Source: Candidatus Marinacidobacterales bacterium
GTDB taxonomy: Bacteria; Acidobacteriota; Vicinamibacteria; Marinacidobacterales; DATDRI01
Direction: 5' to 3'
NCBI GenBank assembly: GCA_965219415.1
Contig: CBDCNP010000002.1
Location: 4,640,001-4,704,000, forward strand
DNA: 64,000 nucleotides
The translations under genes were made by a program, and so were the position numbers. Shown here piece by piece: positions 1 through 5,969 of this stretch. Under the pieces are notes generated by a model. That model was not told the origin of the DNA, did no database searches, and worked only from the letters and a program-made list of their open reading frames with translations. Position 1 is the stretch's first letter, and each line of letters begins with the position of its first letter.

Positions 1-21
1 CAAACCGTCCGGGAATCGGGG

Positions 22-167
22 TCAATAGAGCTCAGTCCGGGCGCTTTCCTCCTCGCCGGCGTCGATCTCGGCAGCGTCAGCCTCAGCGATCTGGTCCGCC
101 AGTACCTGTCCATAAGTCGGGAAGCAGGAGCGTTCGGCTTGCGAGTCCGGCTCCCAGAGCCGCCCTC
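22..167 (-). pseudogene. 3' fragment of a pyridoxamine 5'-phosphate oxidase-like (MSMEG_1061-type) flavoprotein gene, cut by an IS end
   Basis: C-terminus RLWEP...FPTYGQVLADQI...IDAGEEESARTELY resembles this family; the upstream part of the ORF is IS sequence. Confidence 0.45.
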
Positions 168-232
168 TGTGCCAACATCCTTGAGACAATCCGCTCCTTG
201 AAATTAGTGTCGAGGGCGGAGGAGGATCATAG

Positions 233-645
233 ATGAGTACGTTGATTGAGAGAATGACGTCGGCGGGGTCGGAAGGAGCCCGTAGGGCGACTGGAGATCT
301 CGCCGACGGTGGTGCTGCGGCGGGGGTCCGCGATCCCGAAGTGAGTGAGAAAGCGAAGCGCCGACGTTTCAGCGCTGAATACAAGCTGCGGATCGTTCGC
401 GAGGCGGACGCCTGCAAGGGTGACGGTGATGTGGCGGCGCTTCTACGTCGCGAGGGATTGTACTCGTCGCATCTATCGAGTTGGCGTCGGCAACGGGACG
501 AGATCGCCAAGGCGGGATTGACGTCGAGAAAGCGAGGTCGGAAGGCGAAGGCAGAGGCTCCACGGATCAAGGAGCTCGAGCGCGAGAACGCCCGACTCCA
601 GCGCCGGCTGGCTCGGGTGGAAACGATGCTAGAGATCCAAAAAAA
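233..645 (+). pseudogene. IS3 orfA, 5' part; the 3' part KASELLGIPLNPIDDDEND* resumes at about 3861-3920
   Basis: RRRFSAEYKLRIVREAD...LLRREGLYSSHLSSWRRQ HTH and coiled coil; broken at the EIQK A-tract by IS110. Confidence 0.85.
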
Positions 646-689
646 CCTTCGAGCGCGGGCGCGCCTCCTGTTGAACCAGAAACTCCCTG

Positions 690-870
690 ACGGCTACCCT
701 CTTGGCTACTCGAGAGGAGAGGCCGTCCGCTTACTGGTGATTTCGATCCCGTAAAAAAACATGGTCCGGGGGTGGCTGCGGACTTGACAGTGGTGGCGCC
801 ATTTGGCGATCCCGTTTAGGAAAATGATGAACTTCCGCCCATCCCTCCTTTCGGGTTTAATCCGGAAGGA
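690..870 (+). ncRNA. Predicted bridge RNA of the 458-aa IS110 (second copy about 2299-2479)
   Basis: Twin motif CGATCCCGT-N8-ATG at 744-763 (N8=AAAAAAAC, matches the target A-tract) and 807-826 (N8=TTAGGAAA, matches the element end junction); hairpin GTCCG/CGGAC 764-783; boundaries approximate. Confidence 0.7.
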
Positions 871-873
871 GGA

Positions 874-2250
874 ATGATGACAAGAAGGAAGCGCCGGAAG
901 TCGTCCAGACGATCCATTACGTCCATCCACGTTAACGCCGCAGGAATCGACATCGGAGCGACATTCCATGTGGTTGCGGTCCCACCGGAGCGGGTCGAGA
1001 TGTCCGTGCGGACGTTTCGAAGCTTCACGGGCGACCTACACCAGTTGGCCGACTGGCTCGCAGAGGTCGGGATCACCACCATCGCTATGGAATCGACAGG
1101 AGTGTACTGGATTCCAGCCTTCGAGATCTTGGAAGCGCGCGGGTTCGAGGTGCTCCTGGTCAACGCACGTGACGTCAAGAATGTCCCAGGGCGGAAGACC
1201 GACGTCAACGATGCTCAGTGGCTACAGCAGCTGCACGAGCATGGTCTTCTTCGCGGCAGCTTCCGGCCTCGTGGTCAGTTGGTTCGGCTCCGGGCACTTC
1301 TTCGCCACCGTGAACGCCTCATCAACCAGGCAGCGACGCACATCCAGCGGATGCAGAAAGCCCTTATGCAGATGAACGTCCAGCTTCAGCACGTAGTGAC
1401 TGATATTACAGGTGTCACGGGCATGAAGATCATTCGCGCTATAGTCGGCGGTGTTCACGAGCCCGACGTGCTTGCCCAGTACCGTGACGTCCGATGCAAG
1501 CAATCTGTCGAAACGATCCGCGAGGCTCTGACAGGTAACTACCGGCTCGAACACCTCTTCGCGCTACGCCATGAGCTCCAACTCTATGACTTCGTTCAAG
1601 CGAGGGTCACCGAATGCGACGTGGAGGTCGAAGCCGCTATAGGCGAGCTGAACCACGATCGAACTGCGCCCGACGAGCCGATTCCACGTGTCCGACATGC
1701 GAGCGGGAAGAACGAACCGAAGTTCGATGTACGGGGAGCTCTGTATACCCTCTTGGGTGCCGATTTGAGCCAGATCCATGGATTGGGTCCGTACACGGTT
1801 CTGCGACTCGTCGCCGAATGCGGTGACGACATGCGGAAATGGCCGACCGCCAAACACTTCACGTCGTGGCTGACCCTAGCACCCGGCAACAAGATCTCGG
1901 GCGGCCGCGTGCTGAGTTCGAAGTCGCGTCGGTCCTCGAATCGCGCCGCCGCGCTCTTTCGTATCGCTGCGGTGAACGTTGGGCGAACGCAGACCGCCCT
2001 TGGTGCATTCTACCGTCGAGTGGGCGCACGAGTCGGCAAGGCGAAGGCAGTGACCGCGACAGCGAGAAAGTTAGCAGTGCTGTTCTACAACGCCGTTCGC
2101 TTCGGACTCGCCTATGTCGATCCTGGCACCGACTACTACGAGAGACATTATCAGGAGAGGGTCCTCCACAACCTCCAGCGTCGCGCTCGTCAATTAGGCT
2201 ACACGTTGGTAGAGGCGGCTGCATCGAGTCCGCACACCGGAGTTTCTTAG
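874..2250 (+). CDS. IS110-family DEDD recombinase/transposase, 458 aa
   Basis: GIDIG, MESTG, KTDVNDA (DEDD) and LAPGNKISGG serine loop; GGAGG RBS. Confidence 0.95.
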   Translation: MMTRRKRRKSSRRSITSIHVNAAGIDIGATFHVVAVPPERVEMSVRTFRSFTGDLHQLADWLAEVGITTIAMESTGVYWIPAFEILEARGFEVLLVNARDVKNVPGRKTDVNDAQWLQQLHEHGLLRGSFRPRGQLVRLRALLRHRERLINQAATHIQRMQKALMQMNVQLQHVVTDITGVTGMKIIRAIVGGVHEPDVLAQYRDVRCKQSVETIREALTGNYRLEHLFALRHELQLYDFVQARVTECDVEVEAAIGELNHDRTAPDEPIPRVRHASGKNEPKFDVRGALYTLLGADLSQIHGLGPYTVLRLVAECGDDMRKWPTAKHFTSWLTLAPGNKISGGRVLSSKSRRSSNRAAALFRIAAVNVGRTQTALGAFYRRVGARVGKAKAVTATARKLAVLFYNAVRFGLAYVDPGTDYYERHYQERVLHNLQRRARQLGYTLVEAAASSPHTGVS

Positions 2251-2253
2251 GAA

Positions 2254-3862
2254 ACCTTCGAGCGCGGGCGCGCCTCCTGTTGAACCAGAAACTCCCTGAC
2301 GGCTACCCTCTTGGCTACTCGAGAGGAGAGGCCGTCCGCTTACTGGTGATTTCGATCCCGTAAAAAAACATGGTCCGGGGGTGGCTGCGGACTTGACAGT
2401 GGTGGCGCCATTTGGCGATCCCGTTTAGGAAAATGATGAACTTCCGCCCATCCCTCCTTTCGGGTTTAATCCGGAAGGAGGAATGATGACAAGAAGGAAG
2501 CGCCGGAAGTCGTCCAGACGATCCATTACGTCCATCCACGTTAACGCCGCAGGAATCGACATCGGAGCGACATTCCATGTGGTTGCGGTCCCACCGGAGC
2601 GGGTCGAGATGTCCGTGCGGACGTTTCGAAGCTTCACGGGCGACCTACACCAGTTGGCCGACTGGCTCGCAGAGGTCGGGATCACCACCATCGCTATGGA
2701 ATCGACAGGAGTGTACTGGATTCCAGCCTTCGAGATCTTGGAAGCGCGCGGGTTCGAGGTGCTCCTGGTCAACGCACGTGACGTCAAGAATGTCCCAGGG
2801 CGGAAGACCGACGTCAACGATGCTCAGTGGCTACAGCAGCTGCACGAGCATGGTCTTCTTCGCGGCAGCTTCCGGCCTCGTGGTCAGTTGGTTCGGCTCC
2901 GGGCACTTCTTCGCCACCGTGAACGCCTCATCAACCAGGCAGCGACGCACATCCAGCGGATGCAGAAAGCCCTTATGCAGATGAACGTCCAGCTTCAGCA
3001 CGTAGTGACTGATATTACAGGTGTCACGGGCATGAAGATCATTCGCGCTATAGTCGGCGGTGTTCACGAGCCCGACGTGCTTGCCCAGTACCGTGACGTC
3101 CGATGCAAGCAATCTGTCGAAACGATCCGCGAGGCTCTGACAGGTAACTACCGGCTCGAACACCTCTTCGCGCTACGCCATGAGCTCCAACTCTATGACT
3201 TCGTTCAAGCGAGGGTCACCGAATGCGACGTGGAGGTCGAAGCCGCTATAGGCGAGCTGAACCACGATCGAACTGCGCCCGACGAGCCGATTCCACGTGT
3301 CCGACATGCGAGCGGGAAGAACGAACCGAAGTTCGATGTACGGGGAGCTCTGTATACCCTCTTGGGTGCCGATTTGAGCCAGATCCATGGATTGGGTCCG
3401 TACACGGTTCTGCGACTCGTCGCCGAATGCGGTGACGACATGCGGAAATGGCCGACCGCCAAACACTTCACGTCGTGGCTGACCCTAGCACCCGGCAACA
3501 AGATCTCGGGCGGCCGCGTGCTGAGTTCGAAGTCGCGTCGGTCCTCGAATCGCGCCGCCGCGCTCTTTCGTATCGCTGCGGTGAACGTTGGGCGAACGCA
3601 GACCGCCCTTGGTGCATTCTACCGTCGAGTGGGCGCACGAGTCGGCAAGGCGAAGGCAGTGACCGCGACAGCGAGAAAGTTAGCAGTGCTGTTCTACAAC
3701 GCCGTTCGCTTCGGACTCGCCTATGTCGATCCTGGCACCGACTACTACGAGAGACATTATCAGGAGAGGGTCCTCCACAACCTCCAGCGTCGCGCTCGTC
3801 AATTAGGCTACACGTTGGTAGAGGCGGCTGCATCGAGTCCGCACACCGGAGTTTCTTAGGAA
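2254..3862 (+). mobile_element. IS110-family element, copy 2 of the tandem dimer
   Basis: Repeat of copy 1 at offset 1609; junction TTAGG-AA-ACCTTC. Confidence 0.95.
2483..3859 (+). CDS. IS110-family DEDD recombinase/transposase, 458 aa (identical copy)
   Basis: Translation identical to 874..2250. Confidence 0.95.
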   Translation: MMTRRKRRKSSRRSITSIHVNAAGIDIGATFHVVAVPPERVEMSVRTFRSFTGDLHQLADWLAEVGITTIAMESTGVYWIPAFEILEARGFEVLLVNARDVKNVPGRKTDVNDAQWLQQLHEHGLLRGSFRPRGQLVRLRALLRHRERLINQAATHIQRMQKALMQMNVQLQHVVTDITGVTGMKIIRAIVGGVHEPDVLAQYRDVRCKQSVETIREALTGNYRLEHLFALRHELQLYDFVQARVTECDVEVEAAIGELNHDRTAPDEPIPRVRHASGKNEPKFDVRGALYTLLGADLSQIHGLGPYTVLRLVAECGDDMRKWPTAKHFTSWLTLAPGNKISGGRVLSSKSRRSSNRAAALFRIAAVNVGRTQTALGAFYRRVGARVGKAKAVTATARKLAVLFYNAVRFGLAYVDPGTDYYERHYQERVLHNLQRRARQLGYTLVEAAASSPHTGVS

Positions 3863-3916
3863 AGCCTCCGAGCTCCTGGGGATCCCCCTGAACCCGATCG
3901 ACGACGACGAGAACGA

Positions 3917-5056
3917 TTGATCGTGGCGGCCGAGGAGCTGGCGGGCCGGATTGGACAAACGGCGGAAGCTTGCGAGGCGCTGGGCGTGTCTCGTTCGACG
4001 TTGTATCGTCGACGCCGACCGGTGACGTCCAAGCCGAAGCGCCGTCCTCGGCCGCAGCGAGCCCTCGACACGACCGAGCGCGAGAGGGTCCTCAGTGCAT
4101 TGCATTGCGAACGGTTCGTCGACAAGGCGCCGGCCCAGGTGTGGGCCACGCTTCTGGACGAGGGAATCTACCACTGTTCGATCCGCACGATGTACCGGAT
4201 TCTGTCGGAGCACGGAGAGGTGCGTGAGCGCCGGAACCAGCTGCGGCATCCGAACTATCAGAAGCCGGAGCTCGTGGCGGAAGCGCCGAACCAGGTTTGG
4301 TCGTGGGACATAACGAAGCTGCGCGGCCCGGTCAAGTGGACCTACTTTTACCTCTACGTGATTCTCGACATCTTCTCCCGGTACGTGACCGGGTGGATGT
4401 TGGCTCGGCGAGAAAGCGCCGAGCTCGCCCGTCGTCTCATCAGCGAGAGCTGCCTCAAGCAGAACATCGAAGCCGACCAGCTCACCATCCACGCAGACCG
4501 CGGCAGCTCGATGCGAAGCAAGTCCGTCGCTTTACTCCTGGCTGACCTCGGCATAACCAAGACGCACTCGCGGCCGTACGTCTCGAACGATAATCCCTAC
4601 TCCGAGTCCCAGTTCAAGACGATGAAGTATTGCCCTGAATTCCCAAGCCGCTTTGGCTGTCTGGAAGACGGCCGCCTGTTCTGCGGCGGTTTCTTCGACT
4701 ACTACAACAACGCGCACCGGCACTCGGGACTGGGGCTCATGACGCCGTCCGCCGTTCACTACGGTCGCGCCGACGAGCTCAACGCCGCCCGGCGCCAGGT
4801 CCTTCTCGAAGCTCATCGGGTTCACCCCGAGCGCTTCGTGCACGGAACACCTCAACCTCCGGTTTTGCCTCGTCAGGTCTGGATCAACTCGCCGCCCGAG
4901 AAAACGACGCCACAGGAGGCCCTAGGAGCCACTTTCTCGGGGCGCCCCATACCTGAGCTACCCCCGGATTCAAGCTATCCGGACGCGATCGCGTCGGAAC
5001 CCAATCGCGACCGCACCGCGCTCACGCCCCGTCCTTCACTGATCGAGGCTCACTAA
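3917..5056 (+). CDS. IS3 orfB DDE transposase/integrase core
   Basis: WSWDITKL, ILDIFSRY, IHADRG, DNPYSESQFKT motifs. Confidence 0.9.
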   Translation: MIVAAEELAGRIGQTAEACEALGVSRSTLYRRRRPVTSKPKRRPRPQRALDTTERERVLSALHCERFVDKAPAQVWATLLDEGIYHCSIRTMYRILSEHGEVRERRNQLRHPNYQKPELVAEAPNQVWSWDITKLRGPVKWTYFYLYVILDIFSRYVTGWMLARRESAELARRLISESCLKQNIEADQLTIHADRGSSMRSKSVALLLADLGITKTHSRPYVSNDNPYSESQFKTMKYCPEFPSRFGCLEDGRLFCGGFFDYYNNAHRHSGLGLMTPSAVHYGRADELNAARRQVLLEAHRVHPERFVHGTPQPPVLPRQVWINSPPEKTTPQEALGATFSGRPIPELPPDSSYPDAIASEPNRDRTALTPRPSLIEAH

Positions 5057-5117
5057 ATGCAGCCTACGGGTGTCTCTGAAGTGACCCCGCTTTCGTGGAC
5101 AGGTTAAGAGTTAGGGA

Positions 5118-5969
5118 TCAAGCGTCGCGATAGTACCTCCTTTCGAATTGGATAGGCGAGCAATAGTCGATGGCGGAGTGTCGTCGTCGCGGGTTGTACC
5201 AGCCTTCGATGAAATCGAAGGTCGCCATGCGCGCCTCAGCGTGGTAGCGAAACGACCGGCGCTCGATCAGCTCGCACTCGAGCGTCGCGAAGAAGCTCTC
5301 GCACATCGCATTGTCGTAACAGTCCCCGACTGAACCCATCGACGGTCGCACCCCGGCCTCCCGGCATCGCTGGCCGAACGCTAGTGACGTGTACTGCGTG
5401 CCCTGGTCCGAGTGATGGATGACGTCGCCGGGCTTGCGTTGGAACAGCGCCATGTCGAGGGCGCTCAAGACGAGCGACGTCCGCAGGTGGGTAGCCATTG
5501 CCCATCCGACGATGCGTCGGCTGAAGGCGTCCAGCACGACGGCGAGGAACAAGAAGCCCGACCACGTGGGCACGTAGGTGATATCGGCGACCCACAGGCG
5601 GTCGGGCCGGTCCACCTCGAAATTCCTGTCGACGAGATCGGGGGCGGGACGGGCGTCGTCACAGCGAATCGTAGTGTGCGCCCTCTTGCGCCGGTGAACA
5701 CCTTGAATGCCAGCCTCGCGCATTAGCCGCGCTACACGCTTGCGTGAGACGTGGAGCTCGTGTGTCTCTCGTAGCTCGTGGAGAATCCTCGGCGCGCCGT
5801 ACGTGCTCCGCGACGCGGTGTGAATCGCCCGGATCTTCTCAAGCAACTCCGCATCCGACACCGCGCGGGCCGACGGGGCACGCTCAAGCCACGCATAGTA
5901 GCCGCTGGCGGAGACGTCCAGCAGTCGGCACATCGTGGCAACCGGTAGTGAATCCTGGTTCGCCCTCAC
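5118..5969 (-). CDS. IS3 orfB transposase
   Basis: WVADITY, HHSDQG, DCYDNAMCESFF motifs. Confidence 0.93.
   Translation of the reverse strand: MRANQDSLPVATMCRLLDVSASGYYAWLERAPSARAVSDAELLEKIRAIHTASRSTYGAPRILHELRETHELHVSRKRVARLMREAGIQGVHRRKRAHTTIRCDDARPAPDLVDRNFEVDRPDRLWVADITYVPTWSGFLFLAVVLDAFSRRIVGWAMATHLRTSLVLSALDMALFQRKPGDVIHHSDQGTQYTSLAFGQRCREAGVRPSMGSVGDCYDNAMCESFFATLECELIERRSFRYHAEARMATFDFIEGWYNPRRRHSAIDYCSPIQFERRYYRDA

Follow-up and report, generated by a model that had tools for sequence, protein, structure and literature searches.

What directs an insertion sequence (IS) into the run of adenines at which another insertion sequence shifts its reading frame? The question is raised by a stretch of 64,000 nt, called the window below, from Candidatus Marinacidobacterales bacterium (GCA_965219415.1, contig CBDCNP010000002.1, positions 4,640,001-4,704,000), whose assembly (8.05 Mb, 3 contigs, 59% GC) was scanned as a whole. 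Near the start of the window an IS110-family element interrupts an IS3-family element. We conclude that the IS110-family element is very probably guided by a bridge RNA and aimed at the frameshift sites of other insertion sequences. The analysis itself established the anatomy of the element, the conservation of its RNA fold, the covariation of its guides with the flanks and a census of its insertion sites.

A tandem IS110-family element in an IS3 slippery run

By its sequence the inserted element is a member of the IS110 family, and the Pfam matches PF01548 and PF02371 uphold the identity given by the first-pass annotation. The recombinase has an N-terminal RuvC-like DEDD domain (PF01548, E 4e-24), whose residues align to the IS621 motifs, and a C-terminal Tnp domain (PF02371, E 2e-12), in which S342, within ISGG, aligns with the catalytic serine of the IS621 SG. 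D26, E73, D110, D113 and S342 are invariant in 13 relatives, and the profile of these relatives matches the IS621 transposase 8wt6 (E 9.5e-10) and the ISCro4 transposase. When solved structures were searched with the recombinase as a single sequence no match was returned, and the profile was needed to reach them. Each copy starts with a non-coding left end of 228 nt (646-873 in copy 1), which is followed by an open reading frame (ORF) of 458 aa, and the element ends 1 nt past the recombinase stop (TAG, 2248-2250), which lies within the terminal TTAGG.

A single element had been described at this locus. What had been overlooked is that 646-3863 consists of two head-to-tail copies (646-2254 and 2255-3863) that are 100% identical, with a period of 1609 bp. 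The left junction reads GATCC-A7/CCTTCG and the right one ...GTTTCTTAGG-AAA-GCCTCC, which places the insertion inside the host A-run, as first proposed. An uninterrupted IS3 relative in the same genome (L008, 80% identical) reads GATCC-A8-GCCTCC. This relative also bears out the restoration of A8: with eight adenines orfA reads ...IQKKASELLGIPL... up to its stop, and orfB, with its rve domain, lies in the -1 frame. The host thus has the hallmark of IS3 elements, an orfA with a helix-turn-helix (HTH) domain and, overlapping it at an A-rich heptamer, a -1-frame orfB, as judged from Pfam and from frames read with the A8 of intact copies. Five 100% identical copies of the IS110-family element across three genome sites are a sign of activity, and the locus is best explained as a tandem pair of an active IS110-family element with a bridge RNA in its left end. 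Table 1 collects the features.

Table 1. Features of the interrupted IS3 element and of the tandem IS110-family element (positions in the window)
Feature	Position	Strand	Basis or remark
Host IS3-family 5' part: orfA (HTH_Tnp_1), broken at its frameshift A-run	233..645	+	ORF list; Pfam PF01527 E 3e-10; intact relative goes on A8-GCCTCC
Left junction A7: left remainder of the IS3 A8 slippery run, final AA = core	639..645	+	
IS110-family element, copy 1 (CCTTCG...TTAGG)	646..2251	+	Ends fixed by five 100% identical copies at three sites
Predicted bridge-RNA core	710..854	+	RNAalifold, 40 relatives; pair count
Enclosing helix	710-716/848-854	+	Comparative fold
Target-loop stem	721-725/762-766	+	Hairpin 735-740/747-751 between the two target guides
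Proposed right target guide GCUU	729..732	+	Complementary to top-strand A-A-G-C (second core A, flank AGC)
Putative left target guide U-AAAAAAA-C (UAAAAAAAC), same sense as left flank + core	752..760	+	Covariation; last C = element's first base
Donor-loop stem	769-775/839-845	+	Hairpin 795-800/805-811; donor guide 3' of the hairpin
Putative left donor guide UUAGGAA-A (UUAGGAAA)	816..823	+	Right end TTAGG + core AA + one base
Recombinase gene, copy 1, 458 aa	874..2250	+	Pfam DEDD_Tnp_IS110 E 4e-24, Transposase_20 E 2e-12
Internal junction AAA (TTAGG-AAA-CCTTCG)	2252..2254	+	Fits donor guide at 8/8 positions
IS110-family element, copy 2 (guides 2338-2341, 2361-2369, 2425-2432; recombinase gene 2483-3859)	2255..3860	+	100% identity, 1609-bp offset
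Right junction AAA: core AA + final A of the IS3 run	3861..3863	+	Next base G3864
Host IS3 3' part: orfA tail (stop 3918-3920 after A8 restoration) + orfB (rve, 3917-5056)	3864..5056	+	ORFs, Pfam

The probable bridge RNA and its guides

The non-coding left end holds two boxes, CGATCCCGT-AAAAAAAC-ATG at 744-763 and CGATCCCGT-TTAGGAAA-ATG at 807-826, spaced 63 bp apart, with the positions and sequences first described. The eight bases enclosed by the first box equal the A7 of the left junction plus C, and those of the second box repeat TTAGG, with which the element itself ends on the right, followed by AAA. The scaffold and both boxes are kept across an alignment of 40 distinct relatives, and it is because the boxes are conserved and covary in relatives, not from the window alone, that the evidence goes beyond chance.

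The same alignment yielded a conserved structured RNA with two internal loops in the non-coding end. In the cleaned structure 94% of cells are paired and 17 of the 30 pairs show compensatory changes, a pair count that none of 500 shuffles reached; slid controls gave 37-51%. The minimum free energy fold of the window sequence alone differs from this structure and sequesters the Shine-Dalgarno sequence; the comparative fold was preferred. The sequence UGGUG...CCCGU is common to the hairpins of both loops and conserved in relatives. Of the duplicated scaffold put forward in the first-pass annotation, the sharing and the conservation hold, and an origin of the two loops by duplication fits this sharing without being proved by it. 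We also observed that CCUCCUUUCGG (844-854) can pair with CCGGAAGGAGG (861-871), which masks the ribosome-binding site of the recombinase gene and rivals the enclosing helix; this pairing may serve to switch between translation and the function of the RNA.

One genome per species was scanned for relatives, and the best 80 of the 257 found were fetched (61-81% aa identity). Nearly all of these relatives share the left-end architecture of the window's element. Together with the three sites of the window's own genome, 82 loci gave 81 left junctions at 76 distinct sites; four loci (L064, L079, L082, L104) were dropped for want of a usable left end, and two with doubtful left boundaries (L061, L108) were counted in the site census and kept out of the guide statistics. 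The putative left target guide matched the left flank at 511 of 582 positions over 74 sites, compared to a mean of 408 and a maximum of 442 for shuffled guides (0/10000). When one site was taken per distinct guide, the matches were 118, against a mean of 86.5 and a maximum of 106. The guide thus covaries with the left flank plus the core, a sense in which it would pair with the bottom strand.

The changes can be followed case by case. The guide CCAAGAAAC stands beside a flank ending acaagaaa that adjoins an IS21-like istA, UUGUCAAAC beside attgtcaaa, UAAGAAAAC beside caagaaaa, and UUUGACAAC beside ctttgacaa, the last with five copies in one genome, in a repeat of which empty copies are also present there. 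The guide CAGGGAAAC corresponds to gcagggaaa in an IS3 of the window's type in which CAG GGA AAG replaces CAA AAA AAG, which makes the heptamer G_GGA_AAG. The guide UGGCAAAC corresponds to gggcaaa in a DDE_Tnp_1_4 transposase gene at FWANQL, where 12 other loci (14 occurrences) read GGGC-AAA-CCAG, and it is also found in an IS3 with the sequence ILAKATAWFA, there beside ttggcaaa. Among poly-A guides, those of the form UU-A6-C lie at T-A6 junctions in all listed cases, while those of the form U-A7-C lie at C-A7, or at T-A6 with one mismatch. The earlier description of the target guide as a homopolymer therefore holds in that the A-run is read, and falls short in that the guides also read the base that precedes the run on its 5' side and a right flank of A-G-C or A-G-T.

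That right flank is read by a second guide, left unassigned in the first-pass annotation and newly assigned here, on the 5' side of the target loop. In the nine bases before the loop hairpin, positions 2-6 pair with bases 5 down to 1 of the flank, and position 7 pairs with the second A of the core. This register gave 180 pairs out of 250, compared to a shuffle mean of 145 and a maximum of 164 (0/10000); 20 loci were left out, for having no right flank, no UGGNG anchor, a different core or another copy on the right side. At position 4, A faces flank T in 10/10 cases, and G faces C in 23 and T in 5. At IS630-type sites the flank is ACTT and the right guide AAGU. In the window only 4 nt pair. A further candidate for this guide came from the 3' tail, namely CUUUC (about 848-852), which reads GGCUUCC in relatives and UUCAUUCU in L065; it was dropped because the tail there forms the 3' side of the enclosing helix and has no consistent register.

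The donor guide follows the element itself: its variants TCAGG and ATAGG track the right end, and in general it equals right end plus core. These results agree with the first-pass annotation, which had taken the first box as target guide and the second as donor guide and had proposed their covariation in homologues as a check. Each left guide is followed by one more base. After the target guide this is C760, the element's first base, which is invariant. The eighth base of the donor guide and the first base of the right flank are A and A at 50 sites, G and G at 4, G and A at 1, and A and G at 3; it is G in 4 of the 5 elements whose right flank starts with G. These extra bases may pair following strand exchange, like the handshake guides of IS621. 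In one relative (L075) the boxes are quite different, ACUUCUACC and UUCGAGAC, and its ends point to AC instead of AA as the core, which may be a natural reprogramming of the core.

Boxes of the form CCCGU-N8 could also be protein-binding repeats or old recombination relics whose likeness to flanks and ends is incidental. Direct evidence for the RNA is absent, as such an account would have it, and the donor-loop scans returned no right donor guide. The boxes lie, however, in unpaired strands of the fold with compensatory changes, in distant relatives they vary in step with flank and end, and the recombinase is homologous to that of IS621, for which such a mechanism is established (PMC11208160). 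We therefore consider non-guide boxes barely credible.

With the boxes taken as guides, the RNA would be made and bound by the recombinase, and strand exchange would proceed as in IS621, by homology to it. The donor-loop sequence UUAGGAA(A) would pair with the element's own right end and core, and the target guides would jointly specify [C/T]-A(6-7)-A-G-C/T. This motif is an A-run slippery site plus an Ala or Val codon, the signal with which IS3-family elements join orfA to orfB by -1 frameshifting. The element therefore lands where other insertion sequences carry their recoding signal, and it splits their transposase gene. The struck IS3 copy, a competitor, would thereby be disabled.

Insertion sites and tandem junctions

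In the window's own genome all three sites are A8 runs of IS3 elements. Besides the window dimer, a second dimer (C1:722710-725927) lies, with the same junctions, in an IS3 that shares 80% identity with the window's and is likewise of the GATCC-A8-GCCTCC type, and a single copy lies in a different IS3 (orfA ...ERDFLKK) at TTTCT-A8-CGGCGG. Uninterrupted copies of the IS3 types at the latter two sites read A8 in 5/5. Among the 76 distinct sites, 57 belong to elements with poly-A guides (ending A5-7(C)), and these comprise 41 IS3-type, 8 IS630-type and 8 unclassified sites. The proposal that the target is the IS3 -1 frameshift run is thus supported by 3/3 own sites and 41/57 poly-A-guided sites, and the suggested extension to IS630 slippery runs by 8/57. 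In the IS630-type sites HTH_29/32/33 is followed by DDE_3; at L102, the one such site whose frames were read, restoring the run puts the DDE_3 ORF in frame -1 relative to the HTH ORF. In 33 of 37 left matches to IS3 orfA the homology stops 2 nt short of the junction, and homology to orfB begins 25-182 nt rightward. Relatives with variant guides lie in transposase genes of other IS families, IS1380-like and IS21-like.

The guides might instead demand merely an A-run, and the concentration in IS3 and IS630 elements would then reflect survivorship, in that harmful insertions are purged and those in multi-copy, dispensable insertion sequences are retained. Counted strand-aware, the genome has 654 A-runs of at least A7 (104 A8, 13 A9), of which just 28 are in an IS3 orfA/orfB frameshift context, so that such runs, which had been assumed to be rare, are not rare in this genome despite 59% GC. 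The occupied runs are nevertheless all in IS3 elements, and six non-IS3 A8-GC runs are free; moreover, some relatives do sit in non-IS A-runs (L101, before a hairpin, L057, L093 and L112), as survivorship would predict. What speaks against this explanation is that the right guide reads A-G-C/T past the run and covaries with it, that the base 5' of the run is also read, with UU-A6 guides at T-A6 in all listed cases, that a GGGAAA guide is found in an IS3 with the slippery heptamer GGGAAAG, and that variant guides still lead into transposase genes of other IS families. Survivorship as the whole cause is, in our view, unlikely, and we keep to guides that specify the frameshift site.

Several observations weigh against such guidance. 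The target loop carries GCUU (729-732) before U-A7-C (752-760), the reverse of the guide order in IS621 as far as its published positions give it. Fixed-index mutual information, 5-mer complementarity scans and a census of best-match positions detected no right donor guide; on both strands of the donor loop the scans gave z of at most 2.5 and no fixed place. A search of window positions 1-5400, including the left end of copy 1, against Rfam (E up to 1) returned only a chance snoRNA-like match elsewhere. A sigma-70-like promoter was found neither in the left end nor in the internal junction, a type that may not cover the promoters of this host, and the sole RNA-library contig that overlaps the left end is one metatranscriptome contig of 117 nt. 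In the genome 21 IS3 copies with TT-A7-GCC and the six non-IS3 A8-GC runs are unoccupied, and therefore the guides alone fail to predict occupancy; selection against insertions elsewhere may add to the site bias. Eight of the 57 poly-A-guided sites lie outside any recognised insertion sequence, and many of the sites come from a shared genome or a shared IS lineage and do not count as independent. Finally, single-copy left boundaries had been located by a guide-like word; they are independent of it only if another criterion fixes them, namely multiple copies or empty sites, as in four genomes, or the break of IS3 homology, as elsewhere. For this reason a control was run in which each shuffled guide re-searched its own best junction word, and the true guides again scored higher (135, compared to a mean of 109.5 and a maximum of 128; 0/10000).

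The 117-nt contig (run X18, depth 6, placed at 2252-2341) joins the end of an IS3 orfA to the element's left end, and its junction reads A8 where the genome has A7. This could be read-through with polymerase slippage, a strain difference or DNA carry-over. The unoccupied TT-A7-GCC copies belong to a third abundant IS3-type element (about 21 copies, for example at C3:5458248 and C1:304671), none of which is occupied; an A7 guide fits A8 better.

Counts of A's at the junctions indicate how the element inserts. In four systems a single insertion has the intact run plus two A's: the single copy of the window's genome (6+4 A's, intact 8), L042 (6+3, intact 7), the DDE_Tnp_1_4 sites (3+2, intact 3) and three of the five sites in the genome of L065. 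These counts fit a conservative exchange with AA as core, an element C...TTAGG and a circle junction TTAGG-AA-C, that is, insertion without target duplication around a shared short core. L065 and L066 are exceptions. Compared with L138-L150 (G002), these two of the five insertions in the repeat CTCTTTGAC-AA[A/C]TGAATATGAG are one right-junction base short of the empty copies, and therefore junctions are sometimes non-conservative.

Tandem arrays differ by one base. In long contigs from three genomes all internal junctions read TTAGG-AAA-C, and the outer junctions are of the single-insertion type. The window dimer and the dimer on C1 have 7/3/3 A's, a dimer in G001 (L180/L181) has 3/3/2 and a three-copy array in G009 (L159/L170/L171) has 6/3/3/2, so that with each further copy the element and three A's are added; at the end of one short-read contig the junction has A5. 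A donor A3 junction, a 3-nt core, heteroduplex repair and a second insertion into the left or right junction were considered, and none of them yields run plus two together with an internal A3. An unequal exchange, with the right cut after TTAGGAA and the left cut one A before the end, is the sole arithmetic that fits all three arrays, and as a mechanism it is hypothetical. Movement of the dimer as a unit would likewise account for the same 7/3/3 at two sites.

The dimer could be an assembly artefact, for instance reads of a circular intermediate folded into the contig, with one copy really in the IS3. Over window positions 1900-2900 the Logan contigs of four runs end at 2252-2254 and none spans the internal junction, which is uninformative either way, and in relative L097 the junction occurs only at a short-read contig end. 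An artefact would nevertheless have to produce the same 7/3/3 structure at two sites in two different IS3 elements of a 3-contig assembly, and arrays with the same A3 junction stand in megabase contigs of two other genomes. In its passages on the subject, a preprint (10.64898/2026.08.14.744561) moreover reports 437 tandem duplications of complete IS110 modules. We regard an artefact as very unlikely, and treat the dimer as real.

Relatives are spread, by record title, over Acidobacteriota, Myxococcota, Chloroflexota, Pseudomonadota and others, and they occur in 246 plasmid records, including Citrobacter, Enterobacter, Rhizobium and Phaeobacter plasmids, with 61 Citrobacter records. One 64% identical relative (L122; Citrobacter freundii plasmid NZ_CP098333.1, 71.7-73.1 kb), carried on Enterobacterales IncFIB plasmids, lies after ...ERDILKK of an IS3-type orfA, and its right end is interrupted by an IS66-family element. 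In G001, L087 and L089 (also L178, L173 and L182) join the left flank of an IS3 site to the right flank of a DDE_Tnp_1_4 site, and the reverse; L182 has the IS3 site without rearrangement. The pattern suggests that two IS110-type copies took part in a rearrangement. In the window's genome a solo 38-bp right-end fragment (L006, C3:4546039-4546076) is followed by AAA-GCGCTTACGC and preceded by unrelated sequence; it is a truncated copy or deletion remnant. The genome is rich in insertion sequences: the flank of the single-copy site matches 40 other genome places, and 11 further direct-repeat families (100-300 nt, 2-5 copies) crowd window positions 8500-61000.

Comparison with known RNA-guided elements

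The geometry reference for this work was the bridge RNA of IS621 (Durrant et al. 2024, PMC11208160; Hiraizumi et al. 2024, PMC11208158). Measured against it, the element of the window has the same DEDD/RuvC-like plus Tnp recombinase, an RNA at the left end upstream of the gene, and target and donor loops; its left guides repeat, in the same sense, the left flank or the right end plus a 2-nt core, its right target guide is complementary to core and right flank, and it inserts without target duplication. The relation is distant, with a match by profile and none by single sequence in the Protein Data Bank (PDB). According to the same reports, the IS621 protein has 328 aa, compared to 458 aa here, its core is CT rather than AA, and its target is the repetitive extragenic palindromic (REP) element rather than an IS recoding signal. 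A right donor guide, which those reports describe for IS621, was found in no place in our scans of the donor loop.

Guide order sets the two further apart. In IS621 the left guide is 5' and the right guide 3' of the loop hairpin, an order that we derived from published positions; in the numbering given there, the bottom-strand partner G53 precedes the right guide 74-80 and the handshake bases 81-82 (PMC11208158). The window's element has the opposite order, with the top-strand guide 5' and the bottom-strand guide 3'. In the sections of Siddiquee et al. (2024, PMC11187229) on guide matches, the bottom-strand match of ISEc21 is likewise 5' of the top-strand match, and the order found here is that of the IS1111-type seekRNAs. 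These sections state that guide order differs between IS1111-type elements and ISEc21 and tie the reverse order to an RNA downstream of the gene. Since IS1111-type seekRNAs have it, the reverse order itself is already known.

ISEc21 is also the closest precedent for the target. The same report describes it, in its account of natural targets, as an IS110-type element whose target is the codons around the DDE's second D in IS3-family transposase genes (PMC11187229). Both elements share an upstream non-coding RNA and a conserved natural target inside IS3-family transposase genes. A further known element of the IS110/IS1111 family is likewise specialised on another mobile element's conserved sequence, but it uses terminal repeats, compared to the recoding site here. 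In that terminal-repeat-targeting element the RNA is at the opposite end.

The bridge RNA or seekRNA mechanism and the targeting of IS3-family transposase genes by an IS110-type element are thus known, and what seems undescribed is the choice of the frameshift site as target. Full-text searches of the literature returned nothing on a poly-A guide or on the IS3/IS630 frameshift A-run as the site that an IS110 clade naturally targets, although Supplementary Data 2 of PMC11208160 (target motifs binned by guide) and Supplementary Figs 11-12 of PMC11187229 may list such targets. A large, phylum-spanning clade with the programmed-frameshift signal of other insertion sequences as its natural target is a clear case of a mobile element specialised on its competitors' constrained functional motif, and its natural guide/target pairs are usable for the study of co-evolution. 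The AA core, the near-homopolymer guide and the reverse guide order widen the known design space of bridge RNAs, and they lead one to ask how such a guide stays in register on a homopolymer.

A more far-reaching interpretation, which we put forward tentatively and hold to be somewhat doubtful as a whole, is that of a widespread clade of RNA-guided IS hyperparasites. These would aim at the slippery heptamer plus the next codon, the one motif whose alteration would cost IS3- and IS630-type elements the expression of their transposase. Guides and heptamers would chase each other, as with the GGGAAA guide in the G_GGA_AAG IS3, and lineages with variant guides sit in IS1380-like and IS21-like transposase genes. 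The clade would use an IS1111-type guide order from an IS110-type position, and the extra base after each left guide may serve as a bottom-strand handshake, which would explain the fixed A3 tandem junctions.

Tandem arrays, finally, connect the element to the IS110 modules of the preprint already cited (10.64898/2026.08.14.744561). In that preprint's passages on tandem modules, as in the genomes analysed here, whole elements are arranged head to tail; the preprint also notes half-matched donor arms at the boundaries of its repeats. The fixed extra base at the internal junction, A3 instead of A2, is a feature of the present arrays that those passages do not contain. This reproducible difference of one base between single insertions and tandem junctions bears on the debate over copy-out, half-match and in-place duplication as pathways of IS110 elements.

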